A stretch of DNA of 64,000 nucleotides, taken from NCBI GenBank assembly GCA_943846615.1, contig OX044354.1, positions 622,359-686,358 of the forward strand. The letters run 5' to 3'. Shown here one piece after another: positions 6,452-49,107 of this stretch (position 1 is its first letter; every line of letters starts with the position of its first letter). Source of the stretch: an uncultured Amylibacter sp. GTDB lineage: Bacteria > Pseudomonadota > Alphaproteobacteria > Rhodobacterales > Rhodobacteraceae. The notes below the pieces were generated by a model, which saw only the letters and a list, made by a program, of their open reading frames with translations, ran no database searches and was not told the origin of the DNA. A program made the translations under genes and the position numbers.

Positions 6452-6499
6452 AAAACCAATACACCGTCAATTAAGTCATTGTTAATAAACAATTGATAT

Positions 6500-17224: not shown

Positions 17225-18382
17225 TTATGCATGGGCCAATTCCACTTGGACCACATCTGTATGACCAACTGCGAATGAGGCGGCGCATATTTCAAGGTAG
17301 TATTGCCAATTGCGAAAGAACTCTTCGTCAAACCCTAGGCCCAAAACTTTACTCTTTTGTGCGGCCAAACGTTGCGCCCAGATACGACAGGTCTTTGCGT
17401 AATCCTGCCCAAAGGCGAAATTGTCATGTACCTTAAGTCCAGCGCGTTTCGCTTGCTCGGCAATCGCTTTGTCGGATAATAACATGCCACCAGGGAAAAC
17501 ATATTGTCGGATGTAATCGGATGATTTTCTGTAAGTCTCAAAGAAATCATCTTTAACGGTAATTGCCTGTAACAAGACGCGCCCATCGTCTGATAAGGCG
17601 CGTTTAAGTGTTGAAAAGTAGCTGGGCCAATATCGTTCACCAACTGCCTCGATCATTTCTATTGAAACAATGTTATCAAATTTTTCGTCTACATCGCGAT
17701 AATCGCGCAGCTGAATATCCGCACGTCCATCAAGACGACATTCTGCATAGCTATGTTGGTTACGTGATATCGTTATCCCTGTTACATCGCGACCCAAATT
17801 CGACGCATGCTCTGCAAATCCCCCCCAACCGCAACCGATTTCTAATATGCGATTACCGTTGTTTAGCCGCGAATATGCGCGGGCATTTTTACGTTTTTGA
17901 GCGGTACCAAGATCATTATCATCGGCCGTGAACAATCCAGATGAATACGTCATGCCTTCATCCAACCAAAGCTGATAGAACTCATTTCCCACATCGTAAT
18001 GTGATCGAATATTTTTACGTGAGCCGCGCCGTGTATTCGCCCGTAGGATATTATCCACGAGGCGAAACTTGGCTTTGTTAAATCCATTGGCCTTATCATA
18101 CTGACTGAGGTGATCTCGGTTACGCATGGCCATTGCCATCAATCCCTCGACGGATGGAGTATCCCACAGCCCCTGAACATACGCTTCGCCCAGCCCAACC
18201 TGTCCATGCGCAGCCAGAGCCGATACGGCAGACCAATCACGGATGATCATTTCTGCCTCTGGTCCAGCTGTGCCAAAATTGTAGCGTTCACCATCGGGTG
18301 TGCGAAGGGTTAATTGCCCATCATTCAGACCTTCACATGTTGAAAGAAATTGCGATTTAAGCGCTTTGTTTGTCGAAAGCAT
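17225..18382 (-). CDS. cfa: cyclopropane-fatty-acyl-phospholipid synthase family methyltransferase
   Basis: ILEIGCGWGGFAEHA SAM motif, with CMAS-family length and context. Confidence 0.85.
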   Translation of the reverse strand: MLSTNKALKSQFLSTCEGLNDGQLTLRTPDGERYNFGTAGPEAEMIIRDWSAVSALAAHGQVGLGEAYVQGLWDTPSVEGLMAMAMRNRDHLSQYDKANGFNKAKFRLVDNILRANTRRGSRKNIRSHYDVGNEFYQLWLDEGMTYSSGLFTADDNDLGTAQKRKNARAYSRLNNGNRILEIGCGWGGFAEHASNLGRDVTGITISRNQHSYAECRLDGRADIQLRDYRDVDEKFDNIVSIEMIEAVGERYWPSYFSTLKRALSDDGRVLLQAITVKDDFFETYRKSSDYIRQYVFPGGMLLSDKAIAEQAKRAGLKVHDNFAFGQDYAKTCRIWAQRLAAQKSKVLGLGFDEEFFRNWQYYLEICAASFAVGHTDVVQVELAHA

Positions 18383-19661
18383 GCTCTGCTCCTGTTAGAT
18401 ATGAAGCAGAGTTGAGAACGCGGACAACACGCATAGCACTGGCGATGCCGTCTTCGTGGAAACCGTGACGATTGTATGCGCCGACAAACCAGGTTCTGTT
18501 TAGACCTTGAATGTCGCGAATGGTTTGTTGCGCATTCAGTGCAGCCTTGTCGAACATAGGATGTGCAAAATCAACGGTGTCATAAATCTTGTCTGTAGGA
18601 ATTTCTGATGAAGGGTTTATAGTCACAAATAATGGATCGTTTTCAGGAATATTCTGAAGTTGGTTCATCCAGTATGTAACGCTTGTTGCGCCATTGTCGG
18701 ATTTATATACCCAACTGGACCAACAATTGCGATGCTTTGGCATTTGTGTTTCATCACAATGCAGAACCGCAGTGTTAGGTTGATACCGAATAGCGCTAAG
18801 TGCTGCTGTTTCCACTTTGGTAGCATCATTGCCAAGGATTTTCAGTGCTTCGTCAGAATGACATGCAAATATAACGTCGTCAAAATCTGTGGTAGCGGTT
18901 CCGACACCTATGGATACGCCTGTGTTGTGGCGCTTTACATGTGAAACGGGCGAATTGGTTCGGATATCACAGCCCCGCGCAACAAGTGCGGTTTCTAATC
19001 TACGTACGTATTCAATACTGCCCCCCTGCACCGTCCACCATTGGTGTTGACCTGTACCCGAGAGTAAGGCGTGGTTTCGAAAGAACTGAACCAGAGATTT
19101 CGCAGGAAACGCATCTACGTCATCTGTTGGTGTAGACCAGATGGCGCCACACATCGGCAAAAGATAATTGTTTTTGAACCATAGCCCCAAGCCAAGTTCA
19201 TCGACCAATTCACCTATGGTTTTGTTGTCGTCTGTTGCGGCGGCTTCGGCCCATTTTCCAAAACGGATAATGTCGAAGAACATTTTGTAGAATTGTGGTC
19301 GAAAAATATTCCGTTTTTGCGCCAAAATAGAACGGACACCCTTTAGGCCATATTCAAGTGAGCCAAAATTGATACTTGCGCCAAAGCTCATCTCACTTTT
19401 GATCACTGGGACATCTAGTTCGCTAAATAGCCGTGTAAGATTGGGATATGTGGCGTAGTTAAATACGATAAAACCTGTATCTACGGGCTGATTGTTTTGC
19501 TTACCCGCAATGACTGTTCGTGCGTGCCCGCCTAGGCGAGACGCAGATTCGAACAAAGTAACATCGTGAAATGCGGACAAATAGTATGCAGAGGAAAGTC
19601 CTGAAATTCCGGCGCCTATTATTGCTATTTTTTTGCGGGGGCCTTGGGTTTGGTCAAGCAT
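18357..19661 (-). CDS. FAD/NAD(P)-dependent amine-oxidase-type oxidoreductase
   Basis: KIAIIGAGISGLSSAYYLS dinucleotide fold. Overlaps cfa by 26 nt. Confidence 0.85.
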   Translation of the reverse strand: MLDQTQGPRKKIAIIGAGISGLSSAYYLSAFHDVTLFESASRLGGHARTVIAGKQNNQPVDTGFIVFNYATYPNLTRLFSELDVPVIKSEMSFGASINFGSLEYGLKGVRSILAQKRNIFRPQFYKMFFDIIRFGKWAEAAATDDNKTIGELVDELGLGLWFKNNYLLPMCGAIWSTPTDDVDAFPAKSLVQFFRNHALLSGTGQHQWWTVQGGSIEYVRRLETALVARGCDIRTNSPVSHVKRHNTGVSIGVGTATTDFDDVIFACHSDEALKILGNDATKVETAALSAIRYQPNTAVLHCDETQMPKHRNCWSSWVYKSDNGATSVTYWMNQLQNIPENDPLFVTINPSSEIPTDKIYDTVDFAHPMFDKAALNAQQTIRDIQGLNRTWFVGAYNRHGFHEDGIASAMRVVRVLNSASYLTGAEHAFDKQSA

Positions 19662-19692
19662 ATATTCCTCGTTTTAATGTGTTATAAATAAT

Positions 19693-19719
19693 ATACGATG
19701 GAGACTTGGCCTTGGATCA
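19693..19719 (-). promoter_or_regulatory. RpoE(sigmaE)-type promoter for the oxidoreductase-cfa operon
   Basis: The minus strand reads TGATCC-aaggccaagtctccat-CGTAT, ~30 nt before the ATG at 19661. Confidence 0.6.
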
Positions 19720-19737
19720 ATGTTTTTGATTTTTTTT

Positions 19738-19764
19738 TGATCCGAAAACGGACAAGCTTCGTAT
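19738..19764 (+). promoter_or_regulatory. RpoE(sigmaE)-type promoter for the DUF1365-SDR operon
   Basis: TGATCC-gaaaacggacaagctt-CGTAT, 10 nt before the ATG at 19775. Confidence 0.6.
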
Positions 19765-19774
19765 TTAGGGTATT

Positions 19775-20542
19775 ATGTTAGAACACATCCAAGCAAAAAC
19801 GTATCACTCGCGCCGCGGGAGCCTTAAGAACGCTTTCAGCTATGGCGTTGATTATGTGATGAGTGATTTGAAAAATGATGACAGTTTTTTGTTGTCATTA
19901 AATCGCTTTAACCTGTGGTCGATTTGGGACTTCCGTCATGGTGGGCTGCGCGGGCATGGGCAAGGTGTTGAATGGTTCAAGCAAGAATTGACTGTGCGGG
20001 GTTTGAATTTGGATGGCCTGCAACTTGTTCTTTTAACGCAACCAAGTTTCCTTTGGTTTCATTTTAATCCCGTCAGTTTTTGGATAGCACTGCGTGATGA
20101 AGTACCTATAGCGATTATCGCAGAAGTGAATAACACATTTGGACACCGGCATTGTTATTTTTGCGCGCATTCCGATTTTGGACCTATCGACAAATCGCAT
20201 ACAATCATCGCAGAAAAAATGATGCATGTTTCCCCTTTTCAAAAGGTAGCTGGTCAATATCTGTTTAATTTCGACATCTCTAGTGCGGAGATTTCAATCC
20301 GCATTGATTATCGCAATGGCGAACATGGTGTGCTGGCAACACTTGCGGGTAGGCGCCGCTCTGCTTCAAACCGATCACTACTTAAGGCCGCAATAATGCG
20401 CCCGTTTGGGGCCGTTCGGGTTGTTGCGTTGATACATTTTCAGGCGATCATTCTGTATTTAAAGCGTGCGCCTTTCACGAAAACACCAACCCCACCAAAA
20501 CAACCCACCTCAGACAGTTGTTCGTTTAGAAAGAAATCGTGA
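19775..20542 (+). CDS. DUF1365-family protein
   Basis: 255 aa, at the conserved position divergent from the oxidoreductase-cfa genes. The family name is from memory. Confidence 0.5.
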   Translation: MLEHIQAKTYHSRRGSLKNAFSYGVDYVMSDLKNDDSFLLSLNRFNLWSIWDFRHGGLRGHGQGVEWFKQELTVRGLNLDGLQLVLLTQPSFLWFHFNPVSFWIALRDEVPIAIIAEVNNTFGHRHCYFCAHSDFGPIDKSHTIIAEKMMHVSPFQKVAGQYLFNFDISSAEISIRIDYRNGEHGVLATLAGRRRSASNRSLLKAAIMRPFGAVRVVALIHFQAIILYLKRAPFTKTPTPPKQPTSDSCSFRKKS

Positions 20543-21267
20543 TGACGAAGTTTTCAGGTAAAACATATTGGTTGATTGGCGCCAGCGAAGGTTTGGGGCG
20601 CGCATTGGCCAAAAAACTGAGCGACGCGGGGGCGCATCTAATTTTATCGGCGCGCAATCGCGCGCGGCTTGAAAGTTTGTCCGCGACATTACCCAATGCA
20701 CGGGTTTTGGTTTTGGATGTGACGGATTCTGTTGCAGTGGAAAATGCCATCGCAAAAATTGGTGCCATTGACGGTGTGATTTACAACGTGGGTGCCTATG
20801 AGCCAATGCGCGCAACCGAATGGGATGTGGACGCAGCCTTGTTGATGACAGAAGTGAACTTTACCGGTGCGCTTCGGGTATTGGGAGGTGTTGTTCCGAA
20901 ATTTTTACGTTCAGGACACGGTGACATTACCTTAATCGGTTCATTGGCCGGATATCGCGGGTTGCCGGCGTCAATTGGATATGGGGCAAGCAAGGCGGCA
21001 CTGGTCAGCTTAGCAGAAACAATGCGCCATGATTTGAAGGGTACTGGCGTTATCGTACGGGTCGTCAACCCTGGTTTTATAAAGACGCGCTTAACGGAAA
21101 AAAACGCGTTTAGGATGCCGATGCTTATGTCGAGCGATAAGGCCGCCACTCGTGTATTAAAGGCAATGTCGTCGAAGCGGTTTAGAACAGACTTTCCTGC
21201 TCCGTTTTCTTGGTTCATTAAAGCACTTCAACTTGTTCCAGATTTCGTTCTGTACCGCGGAAAATAA
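20539..21267 (+). CDS. short-chain dehydrogenase/reductase
   Basis: LIGASEGLGRALA glycine motif and YGASKAAL (YxxxK). Confidence 0.85.
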   Translation: MMTKFSGKTYWLIGASEGLGRALAKKLSDAGAHLILSARNRARLESLSATLPNARVLVLDVTDSVAVENAIAKIGAIDGVIYNVGAYEPMRATEWDVDAALLMTEVNFTGALRVLGGVVPKFLRSGHGDITLIGSLAGYRGLPASIGYGASKAALVSLAETMRHDLKGTGVIVRVVNPGFIKTRLTEKNAFRMPMLMSSDKAATRVLKAMSSKRFRTDFPAPFSWFIKALQLVPDFVLYRGK

Positions 21268-21304
21268 AGTAGAATGATCCGTTATTAGCGACATCATTAA
21301 ATAT

Positions 21305-21338
21305 AAAAACCTGTGCCGATCTTTGCGATCAGCACAGG
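21305..21338. terminator. hairpin terminator between convergent SDR and fasciclin genes
   Basis: cctgtgccgatc-tttgc-gatcagcacagg. The minus strand continues with TTTTTATAT. Confidence 0.55.
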
Positions 21339-21381
21339 CAGCAATTTTGGTGTGATTAGGATCTAGAACAGACCGTTTTGA

Positions 21382-21897
21382 TTAATGACAAGCAGGGCGT
21401 GTGCCTGGCAATAGGACTTTGTCGATGACGTGGATAACACCGTTATCCGCCATGATATCCGCAATAACAACATTTGCCATTTCCCCTGTTCCATCTGCGA
21501 TTTTAACGCCGCTGCTGTCAGCCTTGATGCACAAACGTTCGCTGTCCAACAGTGGTTTGAAATAGTTCGATCCAGCAGGGATCATTTCAGCAGATAGTTT
21601 CCGATCATCAACATGGTAAAGTAGAATGTTGGTTAACTGATCTTTGTTTTCCGGTTTTAGCAATGTTTCAACCGTGCCCTCTGGTAGTGCCGCAAAAGCA
21701 TCATTTACAGGTGCGTAAACAGTGAATGGACCCGGACCCGATAAAGCATCAGCCAATCCAACCGCGCCAACTGCGGCGACCAATGTAGAAAAGCGTGCAT
21801 CAGCCGCAGCAATTTCAACGATGTTGTCTGCTTGTACGGCGCTGGTAGAAACGACAATTGCAAGTGCGGCGGCGGCTGTTTTGAATGGGTTAGTCAT
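21382..21897 (-). CDS. secreted fasciclin (FAS1) domain protein
   Basis: Signal peptide, FTVYAPVNDAF and HVIDKVLLP motifs. Confidence 0.8.
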   Translation of the reverse strand: MTNPFKTAAAALAIVVSTSAVQADNIVEIAAADARFSTLVAAVGAVGLADALSGPGPFTVYAPVNDAFAALPEGTVETLLKPENKDQLTNILLYHVDDRKLSAEMIPAGSNYFKPLLDSERLCIKADSSGVKIADGTGEMANVVIADIMADNGVIHVIDKVLLPGTRPACH

Positions 21898-22024
21898 TTA
21901 GAAATCTCCAAAGTTGGTAGGCTTATTAGCCTGTTTAATTTTGTGTTAGTATAAAGGTTACGCATGGCAACAGCGTATGGATTACAACTTCACAAGAACG
22001 TGATAATAATCCCGTAAGTATTTG

Positions 22025-22060
22025 AAATAAAAAGAAACCACCGAACAATTCGGTGGTTTC
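22025..22060 (-). terminator. rho-independent terminator after chrR
   Basis: The minus strand reads gaaaccaccgaa-ttg-ttcggtggtttc followed by TTTTTATTT. Confidence 0.7.
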
Positions 22061-22085
22061 GAAAAGGTTATTAATGTGTGTTTGT

Positions 22086-22721
22086 TTAGATTCTAAACAA
22101 TGGCTGGAAGAGGCGCGGCACCAAGGATTTGAACCGCAGAGGCGCATCGGTTGCGGCGAGGCAAATACATGGATCGCCTGGGTCTGCTATCGGCGTATGT
22201 TCGAGATCAGGGTCACCAATTTCAACATCCCCAATTCCAAATTGACCAGTGTGGTCACTAAAGCTTCCTTGTAAAATCAAGGTCAATTCCAATCCGCTAT
22301 GGCTGTGTTCTGGCACGGCTTGGCCAGCGGGAATGTAGAGCAATCTTAATGAACCCTCGCTGTCTGCGGACAGAATATCCTGACGCACTCCCATTCCCAA
22401 AGTTTTCCAACGCGGCTCATTACCTTTTAGTGTTTTAACAACGGGTCCTGGATAAATACCTGATCGATCGTAAACCGCCGCCGGTGTGAATGGCTCATCA
22501 AGTTGCGTAAGAATACTTGATTTAAGATCGCCCGAGATTTTGGCAATCTCTGTTCCGTCAAGGACAACCCCTCCTACCGCTTGATGGGCTTCGTATGAAC
22601 CACGGCAATGGGCGCACATTGAAATATGGCTAGCGACAACAATAGCGAAAGGTTGCGGAAGAGTACCCGCAGCGTAGGCCGCTAACATGGAATCTGGAAT
22701 GTGGTGATTAATTTTGGTCAT
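22086..22721 (-). CDS. chrR: anti-sigma-E factor ChrR (zinc anti-sigma domain + cupin)
   Basis: HISMCAHC (HxxxCxxC) and a C-terminal cupin region. Its start abuts the stop codon of rpoE. Confidence 0.85.
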   Translation of the reverse strand: MTKINHHIPDSMLAAYAAGTLPQPFAIVVASHISMCAHCRGSYEAHQAVGGVVLDGTEIAKISGDLKSSILTQLDEPFTPAAVYDRSGIYPGPVVKTLKGNEPRWKTLGMGVRQDILSADSEGSLRLLYIPAGQAVPEHSHSGLELTLILQGSFSDHTGQFGIGDVEIGDPDLEHTPIADPGDPCICLAATDAPLRFKSLVPRLFQPLFRI

Positions 22722-23353
22722 TATCTTAAACCTTTTAACTCAAGTCGAAGTCGTTCTAGACCAAGACGTATGCGTGATTTTATCGTCCCAAGTGGAAGAC
22801 CAGTTTGTTCACTGATTTCTTGGTGTGTTAATTCCCCTAAATATGCCTTTTCGACGGCTAAACGTTGATCATCACTGAGTTGAGCAAGCGCCTGTCTTAA
22901 GTGTTGCCCTTCTTGATCAAGTGCCAGCATTTGGCTTATATCGCATTCCAAACTTGGTGGTTCGATCAACTCTTCGGGCAATGGTCTATTGTTTTTACGA
23001 ATGACATCAATTTGCCGATTGCGTGTTATTTGATAAATCCATGCGGATACCTGTGCGCGATGGGGATCAAATTGTGCGGCTTTGCGCCAAACGGTCAGCA
23101 TTACGTCTTGCACAATCTCTTCGGCTTGCTCGCCTGGCATGCCGGTTTTCATGATAAACCCCTTCAAACGCGGGGCAAAATGATCAAACAAATTTGCAAA
23201 TGCTGCCTTGTCACGCTTGTCACGTACAGCAAGCATCCAAACGGTTTCATCAGATACTTCTTTCTGGGTTTCTTCCACCAAATTTCTTTCGTACCTGCGC
23301 GCGCCAAAAGTTGGTTTTTTGCCGCGGGTTATATTTTGTTCATAAGCTATCAT
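22721..23353 (-). CDS. rpoE: ECF sigma factor RpoE
   Basis: Sigma-70 regions 2 and 4 (DVMLTVWRKAAQFD; GLPLGTIKSRIRLG). The promoter sits only ~7 nt upstream of ATG 23353, so the TTG/GTG pair at 23281/23278 is the more likely start. Confidence 0.85.
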   Translation of the reverse strand: MIAYEQNITRGKKPTFGARRYERNLVEETQKEVSDETVWMLAVRDKRDKAAFANLFDHFAPRLKGFIMKTGMPGEQAEEIVQDVMLTVWRKAAQFDPHRAQVSAWIYQITRNRQIDVIRKNNRPLPEELIEPPSLECDISQMLALDQEGQHLRQALAQLSDDQRLAVEKAYLGELTHQEISEQTGLPLGTIKSRIRLGLERLRLELKGLR

Positions 23354-23925: not shown

Positions 23926-26900
23926 TTAAAATCGGATGTTATACTTCAGGCCACCGCTTAACTGAATATGCCCACCACTGGAAGCTTGTAGCTCACCATT
24001 GGCGCTAAACGTTTTCAAGCCATCTTCGGATACACGCTTGAAACTTGCGCCCGCGAAACCACCAAGTAAATCGTTTGCACTGGCATCAAAGTTTAATGCC
24101 CCGCCCGCGACAGCGCCTGTTACGTCAGAACTAAGATCGAATTGCCCTACAAGACCCGCGCGCCATTCTACATTTTGCTGCGACCCATCCTTGTTTGTCG
24201 TGTTGCTAGGAAGTGCCAGTTGTGCGCGAACATCCAGAATATGCACATCACGCGCATCAATGCTTGCATTGTTTGTGACGCCCGTTTCGGTATAGCCGTC
24301 CATGAATAGGCCTGTGTAGCCAACGCGTAAGCTACCAATAGCGTCGCGCGCGGCAACTGATACAGGTTTCGAAAATGTCGCTGCTGGTGATATGAACCAG
24401 CCGTCATAGTTGGCCGAGGCCGTTTCGACCCCACCGCTGACTGTGTTGTTTGCAACATTACGTTCATGTTCATGATTGGCAGTCCCTGCCACAAGAGATA
24501 GATTTAGGTCATAGTTCCCAAGCCCCCCGTCCCAGCTTAGGCCTGCGAAGGCACTGCTGATATCCGTTTGGCTCGCATTGCCTTGAACATCTGCCGAACC
24601 TGAGCTGCCACCAGCAAAGATATTTATCGCCCCTGTGTCATAACCTGCAATAACACCAGCAAAGTGACTATCAACGGATGCTAACGATCCACTTGCGCCG
24701 GTCTGACCAATACTCCCAAAAGCACTTACCCATGCGCCTCGTTGTGAGGCTTGATAACTTTTACTTACTTCGGCTACGGGTTCCAATGTCGGAGCCGATT
24801 GACCCAAAACGTTGTGGATGCCGGTAGAAAGATCACCAATAAGCAAATTTGAAACGGCAAAACCAGTTGGGTCTACCGCTACAACATGGTCTGCAGATGG
24901 CATTACATAAGCCGTTGCATTCACCTCAGTAGGGCCATTGCCGGAAGTAAAACTTAAATCCGCATTTAGTCCAGCGCCGATGTTTAAAGTCCTGCTGCCA
25001 GCCCCACTCATTGCAATTTCGCCCATGATCTTAGAGCCGCTCAACAGTGTTAGGGCAGAATCTGCACCCGCCACATACACACGTCCAATCGTTCCCGAGT
25101 TTGTGATCGTGCTGTTGTCGCCATTGATAGAGGCGAAGGTTCCAATCGTACCCGAATTTGTAATCGCGCTATCGACGCCACTGGTAGAGGCGAAGGTTCC
25201 AATCGTTCCCGAGTTAGTGATCGCGCTGTTGTCGCCATTGGTCCGGACATAGCCGTCAATTGTGCCCGAGTTTGTGATCGCGCTGTTCGCGCGGCTAGTA
25301 GTGGCAGCGGTTACAATCGTGCCCGAGTTTATGATCGCGCTGTTCGCGCCATAGGTAGATGCATAGTTTCCAATCGTACCTGAGTTTGTGATCGTGCTGT
25401 CGGCGCCATTGGTCTGGGCATAGCCTGCTATCGTACCCGAGTTAGTGTTGGTGATCGCGCTGTTTTCTCTTAAAGTAAAGGCATCGCCATTTATCGTACC
25501 CGAGTTTGTGATCGCGCTGTTGGCGCCAAAGGTATTGGCAGAGCGTTCAATCGTGCCCGAGTTAGTGACCGCGCTGTTAGCGCCATAGGTCAGGGCATAG
25601 AGTTCAATCGTGCTAGAATTTGTTATCGCGCTGTTGTCGCCATTGGTAGTGGCAGAGGCTTTAATCGTGCCCGAGTTTATGATCGCGCTGTTAGCGCCAT
25701 AGGTCAGGGCATTGAGTTCAATCGTGCCTGAGTTAGTGATCGCGCTGTTGTGGCTACGTGTAGTGGCATAGCCTCCAATCGTGCCCGAGTTAGTGATCGC
25801 GCTGTACTCCTCCTCCGTATAGGCAAAGCTATAAATCGTGCCCGAGTTAGTGATCGCGCTGTTGGCGCCTTCGGCATCGGCAAAACCTTCAATCGTACCT
25901 GAGTTTGTGATCGCGCTGTTGGCGCCATAGGTCCGGGCATTGCCTTCAATCGTGCCCGAGTTTGTGATCGCGCTGTCGGCGCCAATGGTAGTGGCAGAGT
26001 TTCCAATCGTGCCCGAGTTAGTGATCGAGCTGTTGGCGCCACCGGTTGCGGCGAAAGATCCAATCGTTCCCGAGTTTGTAATTGCGCTATCGACGCCACT
26101 GGTAGAGGCGAAGGTTCCAATCGTGCTCGAGTTTGTGATCGCGCTGTTGTCGCCATAGGTCTGGGCATTCAAGTCAATGGTGTCCGAGTTTGTGATCGCG
26201 CTGTTGGTGCCCCTCGTAACGGCATAGTCTTCAATCGTGCCCGAGTTTGTGATCGCGCTGTTGTCTCCCTCAGTCAAAGCATCACCTTCAATCGTGCCCG
26301 AGTTTGTGATTGCGCTGTTGTTGCCTGTGGTAGAGGCATTGCCTCCAATCTTGTCCGAGTTTGTAATCGCGCTGTCGTCGCCTGTGGTAGAGGCAGGACC
26401 TTCAATCGTGTCCGAGTTAGTGATCGCGCTGTTGGCGCCATTTGTAGTGGCAGAGCCTTTAATCGTACCCGAGTTAGTGATCGCGCTGTTGGTGCCCCTG
26501 GTATGGGCGAAGGGTCCAATCGTACCTGAGTTTGTGATCGCGCTGTTGGCGCCATAGGTTCGGGCAAAGGCATTAATTGTGCCCGAGTTTATGATCTCGC
26601 TGTTCGTGCCATCGGTAAATGCGTAGTTTCCAATCGTACCTGAGTTCGTGATCGCGCTGTTGTTGGCGCCATCGGTCTGGGCATAGCCTACTATCGTACC
26701 CGAGTTAGTGTTAGTGATCGCGCTGTTTTCCCCCTCGGTATAGGCATTGGCATTTATCGTACCCGAGTTAGTGATCTCGCTGTTGGCGCCAAAGGTATTG
26801 GCAGAACGTTCAATCGTGCCCGAGTTAGTGATCGAGCTGTTAGCGCCATGGGTCAGGGCATTGACTTCAATCGTACCCGAGTTGTTAATAGTCCTACTAT

Positions 26901-27084
26901 CACCGCTGGTTTCGACGCCACCTGATAACGTTACTCCAGAATCTACGACACAAGGGTTGTTGTTTATACCTACAACACATGCGGCTTGCGCGAGCGCAGG
27001 TGTCGCCCCAATACCCGAAAGGCAAGTCGCAGTTAAAAGGCTGGAAACCAGTCCCGTTGGTGCATTGAAGTAATTACGTGTCAT
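23926..27084 (-). CDS. autotransporter with highly repetitive passenger domain
   Basis: The start at MTRNYF... (ATG 27084) gives a signal peptide ending ...ATPALAQA. The passenger is made of 32 AITNSGTI-type 19-aa units. The C-terminal ~280 aa form a beta-barrel ending GGLKYNIRF. Confidence 0.85.
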   Translation of the reverse strand: MTRNYFNAPTGLVSSLLTATCLSGIGATPALAQAACVVGINNNPCVVDSGVTLSGGVETSGDSRTINNSGTIEVNALTHGANSSITNSGTIERSANTFGANSEITNSGTINANAYTEGENSAITNTNSGTIVGYAQTDGANNSAITNSGTIGNYAFTDGTNSEIINSGTINAFARTYGANSAITNSGTIGPFAHTRGTNSAITNSGTIKGSATTNGANSAITNSDTIEGPASTTGDDSAITNSDKIGGNASTTGNNSAITNSGTIEGDALTEGDNSAITNSGTIEDYAVTRGTNSAITNSDTIDLNAQTYGDNSAITNSSTIGTFASTSGVDSAITNSGTIGSFAATGGANSSITNSGTIGNSATTIGADSAITNSGTIEGNARTYGANSAITNSGTIEGFADAEGANSAITNSGTIYSFAYTEEEYSAITNSGTIGGYATTRSHNSAITNSGTIELNALTYGANSAIINSGTIKASATTNGDNSAITNSSTIELYALTYGANSAVTNSGTIERSANTFGANSAITNSGTINGDAFTLRENSAITNTNSGTIAGYAQTNGADSTITNSGTIGNYASTYGANSAIINSGTIVTAATTSRANSAITNSGTIDGYVRTNGDNSAITNSGTIGTFASTSGVDSAITNSGTIGTFASINGDNSTITNSGTIGRVYVAGADSALTLLSGSKIMGEIAMSGAGSRTLNIGAGLNADLSFTSGNGPTEVNATAYVMPSADHVVAVDPTGFAVSNLLIGDLSTGIHNVLGQSAPTLEPVAEVSKSYQASQRGAWVSAFGSIGQTGASGSLASVDSHFAGVIAGYDTGAINIFAGGSSGSADVQGNASQTDISSAFAGLSWDGGLGNYDLNLSLVAGTANHEHERNVANNTVSGGVETASANYDGWFISPAATFSKPVSVAARDAIGSLRVGYTGLFMDGYTETGVTNNASIDARDVHILDVRAQLALPSNTTNKDGSQQNVEWRAGLVGQFDLSSDVTGAVAGGALNFDASANDLLGGFAGASFKRVSEDGLKTFSANGELQASSGGHIQLSGGLKYNIRF
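25054..26892 (-). repeat. 32 tandem 57-bp (19-codon) coding repeats
   Basis: Counted unit by unit from the translation. Two units are 21-22 aa. Units 2-5 resemble units 24-27, and unit 14 resembles unit 30, which indicates a higher-order duplication. Confidence 0.85.
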
Positions 27085-27600
27085 TGATGTGCCCTTAAAA
27101 TATTTTAAAGTATTTTCCTGTACAGCTAACAATTTATTAATATTAATAACAAGATGAAACATTCAAAATCGCAAGCGTTGTGTTGAAAGCATATTTTGGG
27201 AACGTACCTTAACCTCCTGAAATTGCGCCAAGCCATTATTTGCTAGCCCAAGGCGTAACGAAATATGGTGCTGAAACGGTATTCAGCTGAAGATGATCGC
27301 AAGATAGATATGCATCTACACGATGGCTTGGGTATTGTGAGTTCCAGTCGGAAACAGAAGCTTCAGACTAGAGTTTTTACTATTGGCGTAAGAAATTTGG
27401 AGCGCTGGATAATTGAGTTTTCACTTTTCCACGTCGGAAATGTCAACTTGGGCTCTTTGCCGGCATCGCCGGTAAGTTTTCCTCAATTGGTGGTCGAATG
27501 ACTGCTTTTCGAAAATTGGACCTAAAAGTTTATAGCCGAGCGAAGGTCTGCAATCCGCCCGTTTAAGTCATTGGACAGATTTGTCGAAACGGTCACTAAG

Positions 27601-27847: not shown

Positions 27848-27989
27848 ACTTTGCATTGAGCTCCTACACATTGCTATTTTAATCTCTTCCATACATTCAC
27901 CTACCGCCATCATATTTTACCAAATTTAGCTATAACGTTCGCAAGTGGTTATTCATTGATCTCAAAAAACAAATCAGATTTTATTTCCA

Positions 27990-30900
27990 TTACGGAAAAG
28001 TATTTTTTAGCAGTTGATTACGAATACAGCCTGCTAAACTCAGTATATTAATTGGATCGAAAAAATGCCCATGGCCGCCACGGGTCGTATCCAGTTGATA
28101 TCCCTGTCGGTAAGTTTCGTCACAAAGGTTTTGAAAACTAAATGCTTCATTTTCGTAACGGCTTTCTGGGTGCAGAAAACTCTCCGCACCGAAAATATAC
28201 CCAACGCTTTTGCTATAAGGTAGAATATTGGCTTGTTCCATTAGAACTAAATGCGTGACCTCGCGGCCCGCGTTTAACAAAAGTTCTGCTAGAGAATGTG
28301 CGATGGGGCCACCTTGGCAATTACCGCCGATAAGTAGAGACCCTGTTGGATGAAGTGTTTGTATTTCATTGAAGTAATGAGAAGCCAATGCTGTGATTTG
28401 TGACTTTACATCATCAACAAGTAAATATGCAGAACGCATTCCATGTACGCGAATATCCGGCGCCAGTGCCTCGGCAAGTGCGGTCAGTTCGTGCCCGCCT
28501 TGGAAGCACCAAAACAACTGCTGCTTTGCGCCGCAATCGTCGGAAGATACAATCAGACTGTGATCATTTTCGCGGTGGCCTTGCCACTCTGCAACATAAC
28601 GCAACTGTTTTTGGAAGATTTCGGGTTGCAGCGGGCTGTCGACCAACATCTGATTCACTGCGCTTTTTTCACGAGCCAGAAGCCTATCAACTTGGCCTGC
28701 TAGAAGTTTCAATGTCGTGATTTGCCCCAAGATCCCCGGAGAAACCGAGATATCAAAATGTTTCTCGATCATAAGAATGAGCATCATATGATGCAAAGAG
28801 TCGCCGCCGTTTGCCTGAAAGTCATGCATCCTTCCAAATTTTGTTTGACCAGCGAAAACTTGCTGCCATATTTCCGCCAATGCGCGTTCAGTGGACGTGA
28901 TGGGAGCAATGTAAGGTATATCTTGTTGGCTCAATAGCGACGCATGGATACGAAAGGCCGCCCGATCTTTTTTACCTGATCGCGTTTTTGGGATACTCGG
29001 TACAATGACAAATCTTGAAGGTTGCATATGTGTTGGTATCGCAGTTTTTGCATGTTGCCTTAGCGTATTGATGGTTAAGGATTTGGGGGTATCTGTAACG
29101 ACGTATGCCGTTAGCTTTGAGCCGTTTTCGTCAAGTTGAGCAATACAATCGCTGACACCCAAAAACTGTGTAATTTGGGCTTCGACATCTTCCAGTTCTA
29201 TGCGGACACCGTTTCGTTTTACTTGGTTGTCGATACGCCCAATGAATTCAATTTTTCCGTCAGCATTGTGACGTGCAAAATCACCGGTTTTGAAGACAAT
29301 TTGATCGTCAGTATGGTGTGTCCTTAACACGGTAAAGCGATCTGTTTGTGTTGCATTTCGCCCCAAATATGAATGGCAAATACCGCCAGAGAGGCAGATT
29401 TCACCGACTTCGCCTTGTTGAACGCGACATGTATCCGCATTCAGTAGATGCAGTGCCACGTGCGGTAAAGTTCTTCCAATACTGACAGGCACCCCTTTTT
29501 CGAACGCCCAGATGGTTGAAAAAATTGCGGCCTCTGCAGGGCCGTAGATATTGAACACCTTGGCCATCGTTGCAAGCCGTTCAATTTCATGAATTTCAAT
29601 TTTTTCACCACCGGTCATGATCACACGCAGGTTCGGAAATGATCTAACAGGCAAGGTTCGCCAAACACTTGGGGTCGCGAGAATGTGAGATATCTGTTGA
29701 TCATGAATAAAATTAGCCAGATCCGCACCCACGATTGGGCCACGCTGATGCGGATAGATCAGCGTGGCGCCACTGGTCAATGCAAGCAGCATGTCCGAGA
29801 TAGCAGCATCAAAACTCAACGATGAGACCGACCCAAGTCGGCAACCAGCATCGATACTGAGTTGTTGGATCGCTCCAGTTAACATTTCAATCAACGCATT
29901 GTGACCCGTAGCGATACCTTTGGGCTGACCAGTTGTTCCAGAAGTAAAAGTTATGAAAGCGGTCTTTGCAGATGGCACATGCGTTTCAGCTGGAGCTTTT
30001 TTTGAGGGCTCTAACGATAATACATCCGCAAGCAACAGTGTTTTAATGTGAAACTCATCCAAGCATAATTTGCAACTGCCGTAAGTCAGCAGGACAGAGG
30101 CTTCACTGGCATCCAACATTGAAGCCAAACGTGCTCTGGGCAATGTCTCGTCCAATAACAAACAACTACATCCCATGCGCAAAACAGCAACGATAGCGCA
30201 AATGAGATCGGTTGATGGTAGGAATCCGATCGCCACCACATCACCTGTTTGAACACCGGAGCTAAAGAGTTTGGATGCGAGATCCGCCGATGCGGCACCC
30301 AGCTCGCCATAGGTTAAAGATTGCGCGCCACATACGACGGCAATTGCATTTGGCATTTGTTCTGATGCAGTCAAAATTGACGCAGCGACGTTTCCAATAT
30401 GGGGTGTTTCCATGGCATCACTAGGAATTGTAATGTGATTGGCCAGATGGCGTTGGCAAAGATCGTAATCTTCGGAGTATTGTGCGGTTAAGCTCTTTGC
30501 TGCAATTTTAATGTCGCCTGCACCAGCCACGTAGACGATATCATTTGGTGTCAGATCTTCGGACACGGCCTGTATCAGGTCTTGTACGTTGTCAAATTGA
30601 AAGCATGTGTCGAGTTGTTTCGCAATCTGATCCATTACAGCATGTTTTGTGTGTGGTGCCCGTGGCGTTTCCCCCTTGGGATCGAGATCAAGTAAGAACA
30701 CCATATCACTTTGCTTCAACGCTGCAGCGAATTCTGCCGTACGCGTTTGCGTTCGGGAATATGTTTGCGGCTGGAACAGTGTAATAACCCGTTCACCATT
30801 GCCAGCAATCGACTTTATTGTTTCAAGGTTCGTCGCAAGCTCTTTTGGGTGATTGGCAAAATCGTCAATGATCCGTGGGCCCTGCCCCATTGAAACATCT

Positions 30901-31859
30901 CCCCACCTACCATTAACCCCCGCGAAGCTGGCAAGGCCCGATTTGATCTCATCCAACGGCAGTTGCAGCGCATCACAGGCAGCAATACAGGCGAGTGCAT
31001 TTTGCACCATATGTCGGCCTGGCTGCTTTATATAAATTTCCCCTAAATTTCGCCCGTTGTGAACAACGTCGAATTTGGACCCGTCCCAATGATGGATGAT
31101 ATTCTGCGCGCTCCATTCGTTTTCGGCGTTGAGTCCGTAGGTGATAATCGAGCCTGTGGATTGGTTAACGTTCGGGGCAAAGTGTTGGCAATCCCCGTTT
31201 AGAATGACGGTCCCTTCTACCGTAACCTGTGAAATCAATGCGTTAAATTCGGCCTTCAATGCCTGTTGGCCGCCATAGTGTTCTGCATGATCGTCTGTAA
31301 GGTTGGTAAGAACTGCGATATTTGGAGTGTAGTGCCTTATATTTCCAAATGCTTCGCATGCCTCAGCAACAAGGGTTTTGCCGACGCCATTGGCGCGACC
31401 GAAGGGGGTGTTTTTTTGACGAAGAGACGCGCCCAGAATATAGCTTGTTGTTGGGTCATATTGCGACAATACATGTGCGATCATGGCAGAGGTTGTCGAT
31501 TTTCCATGAGAACCCGCGACAAATATCGAGTGTTTCGCCTTAGCAAGCGAGTTCAAAAATATGGCGCGCCGTTTGATCGTTATGCCCTGTGCGCGAGCAG
31601 CCGTTATCATTGGATGTGTTTCGGGAACAGCGTCACTGACCACCATTATGTCGATGCTGTTTGCGATCTCTTTTGACAAAACCGCACCACGTGCAACCAA
31701 CGCATCGATATTTGGGCCATGACGATCATCCCAGCCATGAACACAGACATTTAGGTCAAGAAGGTAATGCGCAATAGCGCTCATTCCACTGCCACCTAGG
31801 CCCAGAAGAAAAACGTTTTCTGCGCGTTGGGCCGTCATTTCAAACGTCAATGTCGCCAC
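27990..31859 (-). CDS. fusion protein: MurC/Mpl-like Mur ligase + NRPS adenylation + carrier (PCP) + thioesterase-like domain
   Basis: Mur ligase motifs: GLGGSGMS, GSHGKSTT, NLTDDHAEHY, GRHMVQNALA, DDFANHP, FQPQTYSRT (approx nt 30435-31859). A domain motifs: FTSGTTGQPKG, FDAA, NIYGPAE, FKTGD, GRIDNQVKRNGVRIELEDVE, PKTRSGKKDR. PCP: GGDSL (Ser codon 28797-28799). TE: GGNCQGG (Cys codon 28317-28319) and GGHGHFF. The start is either GTG 31859 or ATG 31838. Confidence 0.85.
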   Translation of the reverse strand: MATLTFEMTAQRAENVFLLGLGGSGMSAIAHYLLDLNVCVHGWDDRHGPNIDALVARGAVLSKEIANSIDIMVVSDAVPETHPMITAARAQGITIKRRAIFLNSLAKAKHSIFVAGSHGKSTTSAMIAHVLSQYDPTTSYILGASLRQKNTPFGRANGVGKTLVAEACEAFGNIRHYTPNIAVLTNLTDDHAEHYGGQQALKAEFNALISQVTVEGTVILNGDCQHFAPNVNQSTGSIITYGLNAENEWSAQNIIHHWDGSKFDVVHNGRNLGEIYIKQPGRHMVQNALACIAACDALQLPLDEIKSGLASFAGVNGRWGDVSMGQGPRIIDDFANHPKELATNLETIKSIAGNGERVITLFQPQTYSRTQTRTAEFAAALKQSDMVFLLDLDPKGETPRAPHTKHAVMDQIAKQLDTCFQFDNVQDLIQAVSEDLTPNDIVYVAGAGDIKIAAKSLTAQYSEDYDLCQRHLANHITIPSDAMETPHIGNVAASILTASEQMPNAIAVVCGAQSLTYGELGAASADLASKLFSSGVQTGDVVAIGFLPSTDLICAIVAVLRMGCSCLLLDETLPRARLASMLDASEASVLLTYGSCKLCLDEFHIKTLLLADVLSLEPSKKAPAETHVPSAKTAFITFTSGTTGQPKGIATGHNALIEMLTGAIQQLSIDAGCRLGSVSSLSFDAAISDMLLALTSGATLIYPHQRGPIVGADLANFIHDQQISHILATPSVWRTLPVRSFPNLRVIMTGGEKIEIHEIERLATMAKVFNIYGPAEAAIFSTIWAFEKGVPVSIGRTLPHVALHLLNADTCRVQQGEVGEICLSGGICHSYLGRNATQTDRFTVLRTHHTDDQIVFKTGDFARHNADGKIEFIGRIDNQVKRNGVRIELEDVEAQITQFLGVSDCIAQLDENGSKLTAYVVTDTPKSLTINTLRQHAKTAIPTHMQPSRFVIVPSIPKTRSGKKDRAAFRIHASLLSQQDIPYIAPITSTERALAEIWQQVFAGQTKFGRMHDFQANGGDSLHHMMLILMIEKHFDISVSPGILGQITTLKLLAGQVDRLLAREKSAVNQMLVDSPLQPEIFQKQLRYVAEWQGHRENDHSLIVSSDDCGAKQQLFWCFQGGHELTALAEALAPDIRVHGMRSAYLLVDDVKSQITALASHYFNEIQTLHPTGSLLIGGNCQGGPIAHSLAELLLNAGREVTHLVLMEQANILPYSKSVGYIFGAESFLHPESRYENEAFSFQNLCDETYRQGYQLDTTRGGHGHFFDPINILSLAGCIRNQLLKNTFP

Positions 31860-32412
31860 GCTCTGCGTATTTGGCGATAGACGCCAACTCGTTCAGCACG
31901 TGTTTGCGGCCTCGTTCGGTTTTATACCAAGTATCAGCCTGTATATCATTGGGCGACGTTGCAGGTTGCAGGACATATTTCAGTTTTTTCGGGAAGCAAG
32001 TTTTGGCCGTCATGAGCGCACGGCGCATATGTAACGGTTTAGCGCAAATGGCCACGGTTTCGATGTTTTCCCATCCTATGGTTTCTTCAATAGCCGCCCT
32101 CGTAAACGTGAAGTTTTCCAAGGTGTTGGTCGCCTTGGTTTCAAATTCCAACACACTTTCTGGGATGCCCGAATTGATCGCAATCCGCGCCATGACTTTG
32201 TATTCAGGAGTATGTTCTGAATTGTCCAATTGTGAAGCAGGGCCAAAGCCAGTGATTAAAATACGGCTCACTTGCCCAGCGTTAAAGAGCAAAATTGCCG
32301 GGTCGATACTGGATGGTGACGGCGCGCCCAAAACAACGCAAAGATCGACTGGTTCTGGCGGATCAGACAAAAACAGAAACTCTGTCAAGGCGGTTTTCGT
32401 ATCCTTATTCAT
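31840..32412 (-). CDS. DUF218 (YdcF/SanA/ElyC-like) protein
   Basis: LCVVLGAPS..., ILITGFGP, ETKATNTLENF and AICAKPLHMRRA match the DUF218 pattern. ATG 32412 is preferred over 32520, which would sit 4 nt from the divergent start at 32525. The stop TGA at 31840-31842 is 1 nt from ATG 31838 of the fusion gene. Confidence 0.75.
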   Translation of the reverse strand: MNKDTKTALTEFLFLSDPPEPVDLCVVLGAPSPSSIDPAILLFNAGQVSRILITGFGPASQLDNSEHTPEYKVMARIAINSGIPESVLEFETKATNTLENFTFTRAAIEETIGWENIETVAICAKPLHMRRALMTAKTCFPKKLKYVLQPATSPNDIQADTWYKTERGRKHVLNELASIAKYAERGDIDV

Positions 32413-32524
32413 GCGTAGCTCTAAGTATTGATGTCGTTGCGTTGAAACCTTGTAAGACGTATAAAATCCATCGACAATATCAGCAAGTACAATACCTGCA
32501 TTGCACACCAAGGGCGGCATCTGA

Positions 32525-47118: not shown

Positions 47119-49107
47119 CTAGGTCCACAAGCGTTGTTGTTGATAACGAAAACGTTCGCGCCCCAAACGATTGCCAAACTGTTTACGTGGGTCGAAATTC
47201 GCCAAGACCAATCCTGCAATATTTGCGTTGCTCATACGGAGATTTTCCAAAGCCTGATGCACGTCTTGGCGGCGTGTTTTTTCAGCACGCACAGACATTA
47301 CAACTTGGTCGCAAAACTGTCCCACAATACGTGCATCTGGGAACAGCAAAACTGGTGGTGTGTCGATGATGACGACATCATATTGTGTGCGCAATTTTTC
47401 CATCATTTCACGAAATGGGGATCCCGCCAACAAGTCAGCGGCGTTTTCAATGCCACCCTTGGCGGGCAGTGTATCAAACCCCGTTTTTTCATCGCGCGTA
47501 ATAGCCTGATCTTCGGGATGGTTATTTTGCAAAATATCGATCAGCGATCCATCATCAGGTGCGCCAAATTCGGATTGAAAGCTAACACGGCGCAGATCAC
47601 ATTCCAGTAGCAAAACCCGTTTTCCAAGAGAGGCAATTTGTTGGGACAAAAGGCGGGAATATGTGGACTTAAACTCGCCTGAAAGTGCGGAGCATACCAT
47701 AAGAGTTTTTGGTGTGTTCGTCATCAATGTCGTACGCAGATTTCGCATTGCGTCGCCCGCGAACGAGGATTGACGGTCCTCGATCACAGCGTTGATAGAT
47801 TGGCCACGACGATGGGCAATGCGTGGGATTGCGCCAAGGACGGGAATGTCGAATGCCTGCGCCAGCTCGTCACTGGTTTGGAAGGTTTGACGCAATCCTT
47901 GGCGAATGAAAAGAAAAGCGGTGCCACATAAAAACCCCACAATTCCCCCCATCAACAGCATCAGTTTTTTGCTGGACGATGAAGTGTTCATTGGCAATTC
48001 GGCGCGGGACAACAGGCGACTGTCGGCACGCTGGATACCCTGTTGGATTGATGTTTCTTTAAGGCGGGTCAGAAAAAACTCGTACAGGTTTTTCGACGCT
48101 TCGGTTTCACGTCGAATTTGACTGAGCGTTTGGAAATCATTCGCCTGATCATGAATTTCATCGGCGGCCAATTGGATCGCCTGATTTAAATTGCTTAACT
48201 GTTCCTTTACACGATTGAATTGCGTAGATCCGCGTAACTTGGCGGTTGTTACGATTGTACGATCGGTGCTTTTGAATTGTACGGCTGGATCATCCGACTG
48301 CACCATAATCGCATCCAGCATCTGATCGTGACGGGTTTGCATATCCACCGCGCGGGCGCGCATTTCCTTCAACTTTATTTCACGGCTTTGTAAATCTTCT
48401 TCGGTTAACAATGCCGTTTTTGCATCGAATTCGCGCATACGCCTTTCGTTGCTTTCCAAATCCCGTTTCAGGTCAGACACCCGTTCTGTCAGCCAAATCG
48501 TGGCCTGGCTGGTTGCCGTTTTCTTGTTTTCTAGCTGGGCACTGATGTATCTTTTCGCAATCGTGTTTGCGATATCTTGGGCCTGTTTGGCATCTGGGCT
48601 GTGCGCTGTGATGTGGAATGCGAAACTGTTCGGGACCAGTTTTATATCGACAGATTTCAACAATTTATCGATGGCAGCGTTCAATGTAGATTGCGTTTCC
48701 ATTGCCCTTTCTGGTGCATTCGGCTTGGGGAAAAGGAACGCCAAATACCCCGGACTTTCGACATCTTTCTGAAACGTAGGACTGTTTTGTAAATCCAGTT
48801 CACGCACAACATCACCCATCAACAGGCGCGAATTAAACACCTCTAACTGGGTGAAAAGGACCAGTTCGTTTGAATACCCTGCCAGAGGCATATCCGACAC
48901 AACGCCCTGGATACCATCGATACGTTGCACCTGCGTTTCCAACGCTAAAACGGCAGTGGCGCTGTACTTGGGAGCCATGCGTACGAAGGCCATATAGCCC
49001 GCAAGTGCAATACCCAGAATCACCGACAGAAACAATTTCCAACGTCCAATGCGCAGCGTTTCCCAGATGGCGTTCAGATCAACCAAATTCTCTTTATCTT
49101 GGTGCAT
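47119..49107 (-). CDS. polysaccharide co-polymerase / BY-kinase-like protein (Wzc/ExoP family)
   Basis: Has a Wzz-type N-terminus with 2 TM and a coiled coil. The C-terminal P-loop domain carries a degenerate Walker A (SALSGEFKST), Walker A' (LLLECDLRR) and Walker B (YDVVIIDTPP). Confidence 0.75.
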   Translation of the reverse strand: MHQDKENLVDLNAIWETLRIGRWKLFLSVILGIALAGYMAFVRMAPKYSATAVLALETQVQRIDGIQGVVSDMPLAGYSNELVLFTQLEVFNSRLLMGDVVRELDLQNSPTFQKDVESPGYLAFLFPKPNAPERAMETQSTLNAAIDKLLKSVDIKLVPNSFAFHITAHSPDAKQAQDIANTIAKRYISAQLENKKTATSQATIWLTERVSDLKRDLESNERRMREFDAKTALLTEEDLQSREIKLKEMRARAVDMQTRHDQMLDAIMVQSDDPAVQFKSTDRTIVTTAKLRGSTQFNRVKEQLSNLNQAIQLAADEIHDQANDFQTLSQIRRETEASKNLYEFFLTRLKETSIQQGIQRADSRLLSRAELPMNTSSSSKKLMLLMGGIVGFLCGTAFLFIRQGLRQTFQTSDELAQAFDIPVLGAIPRIAHRRGQSINAVIEDRQSSFAGDAMRNLRTTLMTNTPKTLMVCSALSGEFKSTYSRLLSQQIASLGKRVLLLECDLRRVSFQSEFGAPDDGSLIDILQNNHPEDQAITRDEKTGFDTLPAKGGIENAADLLAGSPFREMMEKLRTQYDVVIIDTPPVLLFPDARIVGQFCDQVVMSVRAEKTRRQDVHQALENLRMSNANIAGLVLANFDPRKQFGNRLGRERFRYQQQRLWT

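Follow-up and report, generated by a model that had tools for sequence, protein, structure and literature searches.

The window analysed here is a stretch of 64,000 nucleotides from an uncultured Amylibacter sp. (contig OX044354.1, positions 622,359 to 686,358). Its minus strand carries a gene for a protein of 1289 residues in which a complete MurC-like ligase is fused to an adenylation (A) domain, a carrier domain (peptidyl carrier protein, PCP, or T) and a thioesterase (TE) domain with a cysteine nucleophile. The triad of this Cys-TE is conserved, the ATP/Mg and carrier motifs of the protein are intact, and the gene is accompanied by a DUF218 partner gene and by further partners that are specific to individual clades. 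The best explanation that we can offer, tentatively and with doubt still slightly outweighing confidence, is that an active TE with the triad Cys1181-His1263-Glu1208 ends a condensation-free, single-module enzyme resembling a nonribosomal peptide synthetase (NRPS), in which a MurC-derived ligase would act by the steps proposed below. The features of the fusion gene, from the list of open reading frames (ORFs), Pfam and motif positions, are as follows.

27990-31859, minus strand: fusion gene, 1289 residues; MurC-like ligase, A domain, carrier domain (PCP/T) and Cys-TE
30492-31817, minus strand: MurC-like Mur ligase region, residues 15-456; P-loop AGSHGKSTT intact
28971-30365, minus strand: adenylation domain, residues 499-963; Pfam AMP-binding, 198 bits
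28695-28880, minus strand: carrier (PCP) domain; Pfam PP-binding, 21.7 bits (cut-off 20.8)
28797-28799, minus strand: codon of the phosphopantetheine Ser1021 in GGDSL, by motif position
27993-28607, minus strand: TE domain, residues 1085-1289; alpha/beta-hydrolase with a very short lid; Pfam PF00975
28431-28508, minus strand: near-invariant residues of the N-terminal half of the TE (Cys1118, Gln1120, Glu1124, Arg1142-Ser1143), alignment columns conserved in 57-61 of 61 sequences
28317-28319, minus strand: TGC codon of Cys1181, the nucleophile in G-N-C-Q-G-G
28236-28238, minus strand: GAA codon of Glu1208, the triad acid at the canonical place after strand beta6 ("position I")
28071-28073, minus strand: CAT codon of His1263, the triad His and first His of GGHGHFF

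The TE domain lies just 3' of the carrier domain and scores 28.2 bits against PF00975 (cut-off 26.4). The minus-strand translation at 27900-28700 reads ...HPTGSLLIGGNCQGGPIAHSLAELLLNAGREVTHLVLMEQ...TTRGGHGHFFDPIN..., and the elbow stretch ...TGSLLIGGNCQGGPIAHSLAELLLNAGREVTHLVLMEQ...TTRGGHGHFF... is found where a preliminary description of this DNA had located it. That description had placed a Cys at the nucleophile elbow and LVLMEQ at the site of the triad Asp, and both assignments are borne out when the last 216 residues (with phmmer) and then the family profile are compared with all chains in the Protein Data Bank (PDB). In the HMMER alignments with solved structures, Cys1181 pairs with the nucleophilic Ser of the PksA (GGWSSGG) and NocB (GGWSFGG) TEs and with the Cys of AB3403 (GGWCFGG), while the Glu of LVLMEQ pairs with the triad Asp of all three. 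The GGHGHFF motif, also named in that description, is present and conserved, with the correction that the conserved residue is its first His (G-x-H-G in the family); in the family-profile alignment, the His of PG-x-HG stands opposite the His of PGDHSSIM in AB3403. The two findings that the preliminary description had named as fatal to its reading, a Cys away from the elbow or the lack of a His/acid partner, are thus not what we see: Cys, His and Glu all have their place. An AlphaFold2 model of the TE built on 35 relatives has a mean pLDDT of 92.8, with the Cys after a strand and before a helix, the Glu where the following strand ends and the His in a loop past the last strand. Foldseek searches with this model return only TEs of NRPSs and polyketide synthases (PKSs) and related alpha/beta-hydrolases (TM-scores of 0.6-0.67; the top matches are all NRPS/PKS TEs with probability 1.0). 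As for the TGC codon at 28317-28319, contigs of four runs, drawn from three marine/seawater metagenome studies, agree in all 251 bases around it, with a word depth of up to 110x, which confirms the codon and excludes an assembly error.

Conservation across the family is strict. The Cys occupies the nucleophile place in 61 of 61 family TE domains, always in a G-x-C-Q-G elbow, so that the Cys-Gln pair is invariant. The triad acid is Glu in 54 of these TEs and Asp in 7, and the triad His is kept in 60, within the motif G-x-H-G. Trp1092, Gln1120, Glu1124, Arg1142 and Ser1143 are likewise invariant, and Cys1118 is found in 57 sequences; around Arg1142-Ser1143, the family motif MRSGHL reads MRSAYL in the window protein. 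The Cys is not there by chance, since Cys, Glu/Asp and His are conserved through the family, and the same conservation across the 61 TEs excludes a decayed domain; the candidate of a dead remnant was rejected on this ground. Judged from sequence and from the model, the domain is a type-I TE that appears catalytically equipped, with a predicted Cys1181-His1263-Glu1208 triad.

The cysteine extends well beyond this family. A TE profile run against 1.84 billion representative proteins matched 526 representatives at E<=1e-30. All 140 new sequences among the matches listed carry a Cys in GGNCQ(G/A/S), and most have RSGHL 39 residues upstream, giving a clade motif RSGHL...GGNCQ(G/A/S)...LME...GxHG. 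As far as these sequences tell, the Cys marks out a large, uncharacterised clade of TEs and is no isolated substitution. Besides the architecture of the window protein (MurC-A-T-TE), the clade includes stand-alone C-A-T-TE proteins with a condensation (C) domain, A-T-TE proteins with tetratricopeptide (TPR) repeats, and multi-module NRPSs of up to 5855 residues. The C-A-T-TE proteins (P0149, P0150, P0159, P0140, P0155 and P0177; loci L075-L079) are 1271-1349 residues long and share the Cys/Glu/His TE subtype (GGNCQG...LME...G.HG.FF). The space that the Mur ligase occupies in the fusion is filled in them by the condensation domain, at roughly residues 1-450 to 1-490.

Several further observations concern these relatives. 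The gene of P0140 is flanked by an A-T gene on one side and one for a phosphopantetheinyl transferase on the other. Of the six C-A-T-TE proteins, three have an A-domain code of the form DSWD(L/I)GTIG, with an Asp at position 4. In P0171, P0201, P0212 and others, long TPR-repeat regions frequently come after this Cys-TE subtype, and in one an Ig-like domain does. In very large NRPSs of 3471-5855 residues this TE subtype is internal and not terminal.

The host protein is not a canonical NRPS. Pfam places the three Mur ligase domains (PF01225, PF08245 and PF02875) at residues 19-448, AMP-binding and AMP-binding_C at 499-963, PP-binding at 994-1055, and then the thioesterase. A condensation domain (PF00668) has no Pfam match anywhere in the 1289 residues, the N-terminal 456 being Mur ligase, so the A-T pair lacks the domain that precedes it in a canonical module. 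The NRPS thioesterase of the preliminary description therefore stands as a thioesterase, while its host has no condensation domain and begins with a complete MurC-like ligase. This ligase scores 330.0 bits against the NCBIfam murC equivalog (TIGR01082), just below the cut-off of 335.1, and only 124 bits against the mpl model; solved MurC enzymes, its best PDB matches, align with it over the full ~440 residues (E 1e-43 to 1e-59).

The ligase domain keeps the glycine-rich loop, the P-loop and the DDH..HYG motif; EACEAF replaces the EADESD block of MurC. The likeness to MurC (UDP-N-acetylmuramate--L-alanine ligase) thus covers the three Mur domains, the P-loop and the motifs for metal and ATP, and the differences are the fusion to A-T-TE, the score just under the equivalog cut-off and the replacement of His376. 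The amino-acid site of the window protein reads DDFANHP and FQPQTYSRT, while true MurC fusions have DDYAHHP and FQPH(R/T/L)YSR. At the positions of Tyr346, His348, His376, Arg377 and Arg380 (H. influenzae numbering) it has Phe, Asn, Gln, Thr and Arg, and does not reproduce the residues of the MurC amino-acid site. His376 helps to hold L-Ala, the incoming substrate, in MurC of H. influenzae (PMC3060825). At its place Gln or Leu is found in all family motifs that could be read except that of the closest relative, P0002 (75% identical), whereas all 36 true MurC fusions with a readable motif have His; Tyr346 is changed to Phe in about half of the family motifs read.

Specificity codes of the A domains were derived by aligning them to a fragment of GrsA. 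On this alignment, the window code is D-A-S-L-M-G-I-I-F-(K), with no anionic residue in the pocket, and small residues line the pocket in most family members. Every A domain examined retains the equivalent of Asp235, from which a free alpha-amine on the substrate is to be expected. In a sub-clade of MurC-A-T-TE proteins (P0036, P0046, P0049, P0051, P0053, P0057, P0061 and P0062) the residue at Stachelhaus position 9 is Glu (DVGSIAAVE); their A domains may take another amino acid, possibly a cationic one.

The genes next to the fusion gene are the following.

31840-32520, minus strand: DUF218 (YdcF/SanA-family) gene, directly upstream, with a 20-nt overlap with the fusion gene; Pfam PF02698, 62.7 bits
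32525-33265, plus strand: Stf0-family sulfotransferase gene, divergent from the DUF218 gene; Pfam PF09037

In 34 of the 36 loci with readable upstream sequence, the fusion gene is immediately preceded by a DUF218 gene of the same strand, which often overlaps its start codon. Fusion and DUF218 gene form the fixed unit, a conserved two-gene cassette. The sole MurC-A-T-TE loci with readable upstream sequence but no DUF218 gene, L071 and L072, are near-copies of each other. In the window, the likely start of the DUF218 gene is the ATG at 32412, which gives 190 residues without a membrane segment. The product matches PF02698, as do SanA, ElyC and YdcF of E. coli. Having no membrane anchor, it would be YdcF-like and cytoplasmic, and it is translationally linked to the fusion gene. 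A PDB sequence search with this partner gave only spurious chaperonin matches. SanA and ElyC influence the metabolism of peptidoglycan precursors and of those of the enterobacterial common antigen (PMC12176290).

The sulfotransferase gene that the preliminary description had reported as adjacent is there: the product scores 38.6 bits against PF09037 (cut-off 22) over nearly the full length of the model. It reaches only 34 against the NCBIfam equivalog for trehalose 2-sulfotransferase, whose cut-off is 400, and found no match in a PDB sequence search. Stf0 genes occur in only 3 of the 36 loci, all in one marine sub-clade: the window, L001 (Stf0 77% identical, fusion 75%) and L008 from Pseudoruegeria (Stf0 43%, fusion 38%). 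The gene is always divergent from DUF218, and no further flanking gene family is common to the three loci. Since it holds the same divergent position beside fusions that are 38-75% identical, amid different flanks, Stf0 is probably a tailoring partner in this sub-clade. The window has two more, unrelated sulfotransferase genes as well as exopolysaccharide genes; sulfotransferases are thus common in this genome, which raises the background chance of finding one near any gene; pure chance was nonetheless rejected for the marine sub-clade, where position and orientation are kept and the flanks are unrelated.

Other lineages have other partners. In a second clade, a NagZ-type gene of glycoside hydrolase family 3 (GH3) overlaps the stop codon of the fusion by 4 nt at no fewer than 12 loci, and in a third the fusion protein is extended at its C terminus by ~450 residues with weak similarity to Glyco_trans_1_2, which gives forms of 1720-1890 residues that also appear in the database search. 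The variable partners (Stf0, the NagZ-type GH3 and the Glyco_trans_1_2-like tail) thus all come from families that act on carbohydrates. The fusion gene does not lie within a cell-division or cell-wall gene cluster. PADLOC found no defence-system match for the fusion, DUF218 and Stf0 proteins of the window, and scans for promoters and terminators around the cassette did no better than on shuffled sequence. At locus L005, that of P0062, genes of the PAPS_reduct and DUF6671 families (5495-7247) lie just upstream of DUF218, a different neighbour related to sulfur nucleotides. At L003, L004 and L007 (Roseococcus and one metagenomic contig), the cassette stands beside phage integrase, Rad52-type and other phage-like genes, which suggests horizontal mobility.

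The MurC-A-T-TE architecture is represented by about 62 database clusters of 1260-1340 residues, 29-75% identical to the window protein over 93-99% of the query. The source names of these relatives (Pseudoruegeria, Roseococcus, Polynucleobacter) are only automatic "UDP-N-acetylmuramate--L-alanine ligase" labels. Among species-representative genomes, the architecture is found in Pseudoruegeria, Falsiroseomonas, Asaia, Roseococcus, Parvibaculum, Aestuariivirga and Xanthobacteraceae, and in Hydrogenophaga, Variovorax, Zwartia, Eoetvoesiella and one metagenome-assembled genome each of Chlorobiaceae and Verrucomicrobiota, so that it spans Alpha- and Betaproteobacteria, Chlorobiaceae and Verrucomicrobiota. 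With the pattern used, 15 loci were recovered from 185,579 species, and the fusion gene is thus rare and patchy; the search was built from a TE alignment restricted to sequences with HGMRSGHL, so the recovered loci are biased to that motif. No description of the MurC-A-T-TE architecture, with or without DUF218, was found in open-access papers and bioRxiv preprints, which leaves room for an earlier description elsewhere. Cys-TEs, MurC and DUF218 are each known; a MurC-A-T-Cys-TE protein with a fixed DUF218 partner is apparently undescribed.

For the substrates, the order of the steps and the releasing nucleophile of this enzyme we infer the following. The A domain would charge the carrier with an alpha-amino acid. 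The MurC-like domain, standing in the place of a condensation domain, would phosphorylate the carboxylate of UDP-MurNAc (N-acetylmuramic acid linked to UDP), which is our default guess, or of a similar UDP-sugar acid. The resulting acyl-phosphate would then couple to the free amine of the carrier-bound amino acid, the carboxyl of which would stay a thioester. The acyl group would next move to Cys1181, and a second nucleophile (an amine, a hydroxyl or water) would resolve the enzyme thioester, the bond made at release being one for which a plain MurC product would need a further ATP-dependent ligase. Partners specific to each lineage would tailor or use the sugar-linked product: Stf0 in the window, the NagZ-like GH3 or the glycosyltransferase-like tail elsewhere.

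Within this scheme the Mur ligase acts as a kind of starter condensation domain, a role suggested by the C-A-T-TE relatives that carry the same TE and have a condensation domain at that place. Keeping the carboxyl as a thioester would have a point only if a second bond were to follow, for which a Cys acyl-enzyme is well suited: Cys-TEs favour transfer to poor nucleophiles over hydrolysis (PMC11792885). The short lid seen in the TE model would fit a bulky, polar substrate. That the ligase makes its amide on the carrier-tethered amino acid, yielding a thioester-activated UDP-muramyl-amino acid (or another UDP-sugar-acid amide) for the Cys-TE to transfer onward, is a possibility that we regard as less likely than not.

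Several points weigh against the proposed enzyme. We know of no Mur ligase that accepts a carrier-bound amine. The equivalence in position between Mur ligase and condensation domain is suggestive and is not proof. If release were hydrolytic, the product would be that of a plain Mur ligase and the A-T-TE part would be pointless, so the scheme needs a second nucleophile. The change at the MurC His376 place is not obligatory, since P0002 retains the His. In the window protein and P0002, the uracil-contacting His70 of H. influenzae MurC is absent, with Lys/Glu instead, in a region (residues 55-70, about 31650-31700 of the minus strand) where these two proteins are ~4 residues shorter than other members; their sub-clade may use a substrate with a different nucleotide part. 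The A-domain code, finally, varies across the family, most relatives having DV[AG]xIAAIY, and to our knowledge neither this code nor DASLMGIIF resembles one already described.

The strongest competitor, unlikely but serious, is that two activities were fused for channelling: the MurC-like domain would ligate a free amino acid to UDP-MurNAc in the usual way, and A-T-TE would independently be a Dlt-type aminoacyl transferase, its Cys-TE handing a plain aminoacyl group over from the carrier to a hydroxyl or amine of the nucleotide sugar or of a glycan. The murC score almost at the equivalog cut-off agrees with this, as do the match of the A domain to DltA-type models (175-189 bits), the free alpha-amine implied by the Asp235 equivalent, the sugar-directed partners and the short lid, which suggests an active site open to a bulky acceptor. 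A ligase still using free L-Ala would, however, leave the family-wide change at the MurC amino-acid site unexplained, and the existence of C-A-T-TE relatives with this TE speaks for an N-terminal domain that works on a carrier-bound amino acid, as in the condensation-free scheme that we prefer.

Improbable by comparison is an order like that of Mpl, in which A-T-TE would first produce a modified amino acid or a short peptide, perhaps through iterative self-condensation on the Cys-TE, and the ligase would attach the released product to UDP-MurNAc. Mpl, a MurC paralogue, does ligate preformed peptides (PMC3060825), the amino-acid site of the ligase is altered and most A-domain pockets have small residues; yet the ligase scores 330 bits on murC and 124 on mpl, we found no precedent, and the domain order mirrors C-A-T-TE. 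Less probable again is a TE that is merely hydrolytic or editing, or a decayed remnant, its Cys being without special meaning: the Pfam score is borderline and the domain short (~205 residues), but the triad and at least 10 other positions are invariant or nearly so in relatives only 30-40% identical, the fold is predicted with confidence, and the clade of 526 representatives shows the motif in all 140 listed matches inspected.

The preliminary description had drawn an analogy with sulfazecin and obafluorin, on which the sulfotransferase would act on a carrier-bound intermediate and the Cys-TE would close a four-membered beta-lactam or beta-lactone. The TEs of SulM (sulfazecin, PDB 8W2C/8W2D) and ObiF1 (obafluorin) do share with ours the type-I fold and the Cys nucleophile, and the sulfazecin cluster, too, has a sulfotransferase gene; here the adjacent gene is conserved at three loci. 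Among the C-A-T-TE relatives in this Cys-TE clade, P0150 is accompanied by a divergently transcribed gene of the Sulfotransfer_3 family, whereas two further informative ones have no such sulfotransferase gene. TEs of the SulM type are recognised by an acid moved to position II, a nucleophile set in Gln-Cys-Asn, two or more of three Arg residues in the pocket, a last A domain specific for L-2,3-diaminopropionate and a sulfotransferase encoded within the cluster, while AB3403, the only other structurally characterised Cys-TE, keeps its acid at position I (PMC11298585). In the window protein, Glu1208 follows beta6 and thus stands at position I, like the acid of AB3403, and the nucleophile sits in Asn-Cys-Gln. 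The specificity code of the A domain, by the alignment to the GrsA fragment, is DASLMGIIF against DVWEMNADD of SulA3, without the anionic residues of the latter; the three known modes of binding a diamino acid all need a Glu or Asp in the pocket. The SulM and ObiF1 TEs, with their acid at position II, belong to multi-domain NRPSs with condensation domains; of the ObiF features (a Cys nucleophile and a relocated acid, on an NRPS that joins an aryl acid to a beta-hydroxy amino acid), the window protein has the Cys but neither the relocated acid nor a condensation domain. A single module that lacks a condensation domain supplies no peptide for cyclisation as in sulfazecin.

The structural searches point the same way. 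Neither SulM nor ObiF occurs among the 51 PDB sequence matches of the family profile, and Foldseek ranks SulM no higher than generic TEs. The best PDB sequence match of the TE is AB3403 (ABBFA_003403 of Acinetobacter baumannii, PDB 4ZXH/4ZXI; E 1.4e-14 with the family profile), a single module of ~1300 residues with A-T-TE in the same order, a Cys nucleophile and an acid at the post-beta6 place. It differs in having a condensation domain where the window protein has the MurC-like ligase, as in the stand-alone C-A-T-TE proteins, in its elbow (GGWCFGG instead of GGNCQGG) and in its acid (Asp instead of Glu). Stf0, moreover, is found at 3 of 36 loci while the Cys is invariant in all, and trehalose 2-sulfotransferase, the named member of the Stf0 family, acts on a sugar. 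Cys-TEs also perform macrolactamisation (polymyxin) and indole N-acylation (BulbE) (PMC11792885), so a Cys by itself does not imply a strained ring; by their published description, the bulbiferamide (BulbE) and polymyxin TEs resemble ours in the Cys nucleophile and a thioester acyl-enzyme open to poor nucleophiles, and differ as macrocyclases that end multi-module NRPSs. Taken together, these comparisons do not bear out release of the SulM or ObiF kind, which we regard as very remote.

Cys-thioesterases are sought as markers of unusual release chemistry. The existence of a large clade with an invariant Cys and a Glu acid makes the Cys alone a poor predictor of beta-lactam or beta-lactone formation, and the MurC-A-T-TE protein behind the Cys motif is arguably more unusual than the strained-ring proposal, as it combines in a single polypeptide a Mur ligase with an NRPS module, each a textbook system for forming amides. 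If the proposed scheme is true, it would be a new route to modified cell-wall precursors or glycoconjugates, and the DUF218 family would gain a defined enzymatic partner and substrate. The two-gene cassette should be soluble and act on common metabolites, which makes both the biochemistry of DUF218 and the role of the Cys-TE testable in vitro.

Elsewhere in the window, the two further sulfotransferase genes are a TPR plus Sulfotransfer_3 gene at 9038-10561 (plus strand) and a gene combining glycosyltransferase family 4 (GT4) with Sulfotransfer_1/3 at 49094-51214 (minus strand). The latter lies beside a Wzz/GNVR tyrosine-kinase-type gene (47119-49107) and a glycosyltransferase family 2 (GT2) gene (51974-52954), which suggests synthesis of a sulfated exopolysaccharide. 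At 17225-23353, an extracytoplasmic function (ECF) sigma factor and a ChrR-type anti-sigma factor (22086-23353) stand beside a cyclopropane-fatty-acid synthase, an amine oxidase, DUF1365 and a short-chain dehydrogenase/reductase (SDR), a layout that we take to resemble the singlet-oxygen stress regulon of Alphaproteobacteria. The minus-strand gene at 23926-27162 encodes 1078 residues without a Pfam match, in which ~40 degenerate G-x-NSAITNSGTI repeats precede a C-terminal region like an autotransporter barrel; the ORF at 25704-26168 in another frame is probably a by-product of these repeats.

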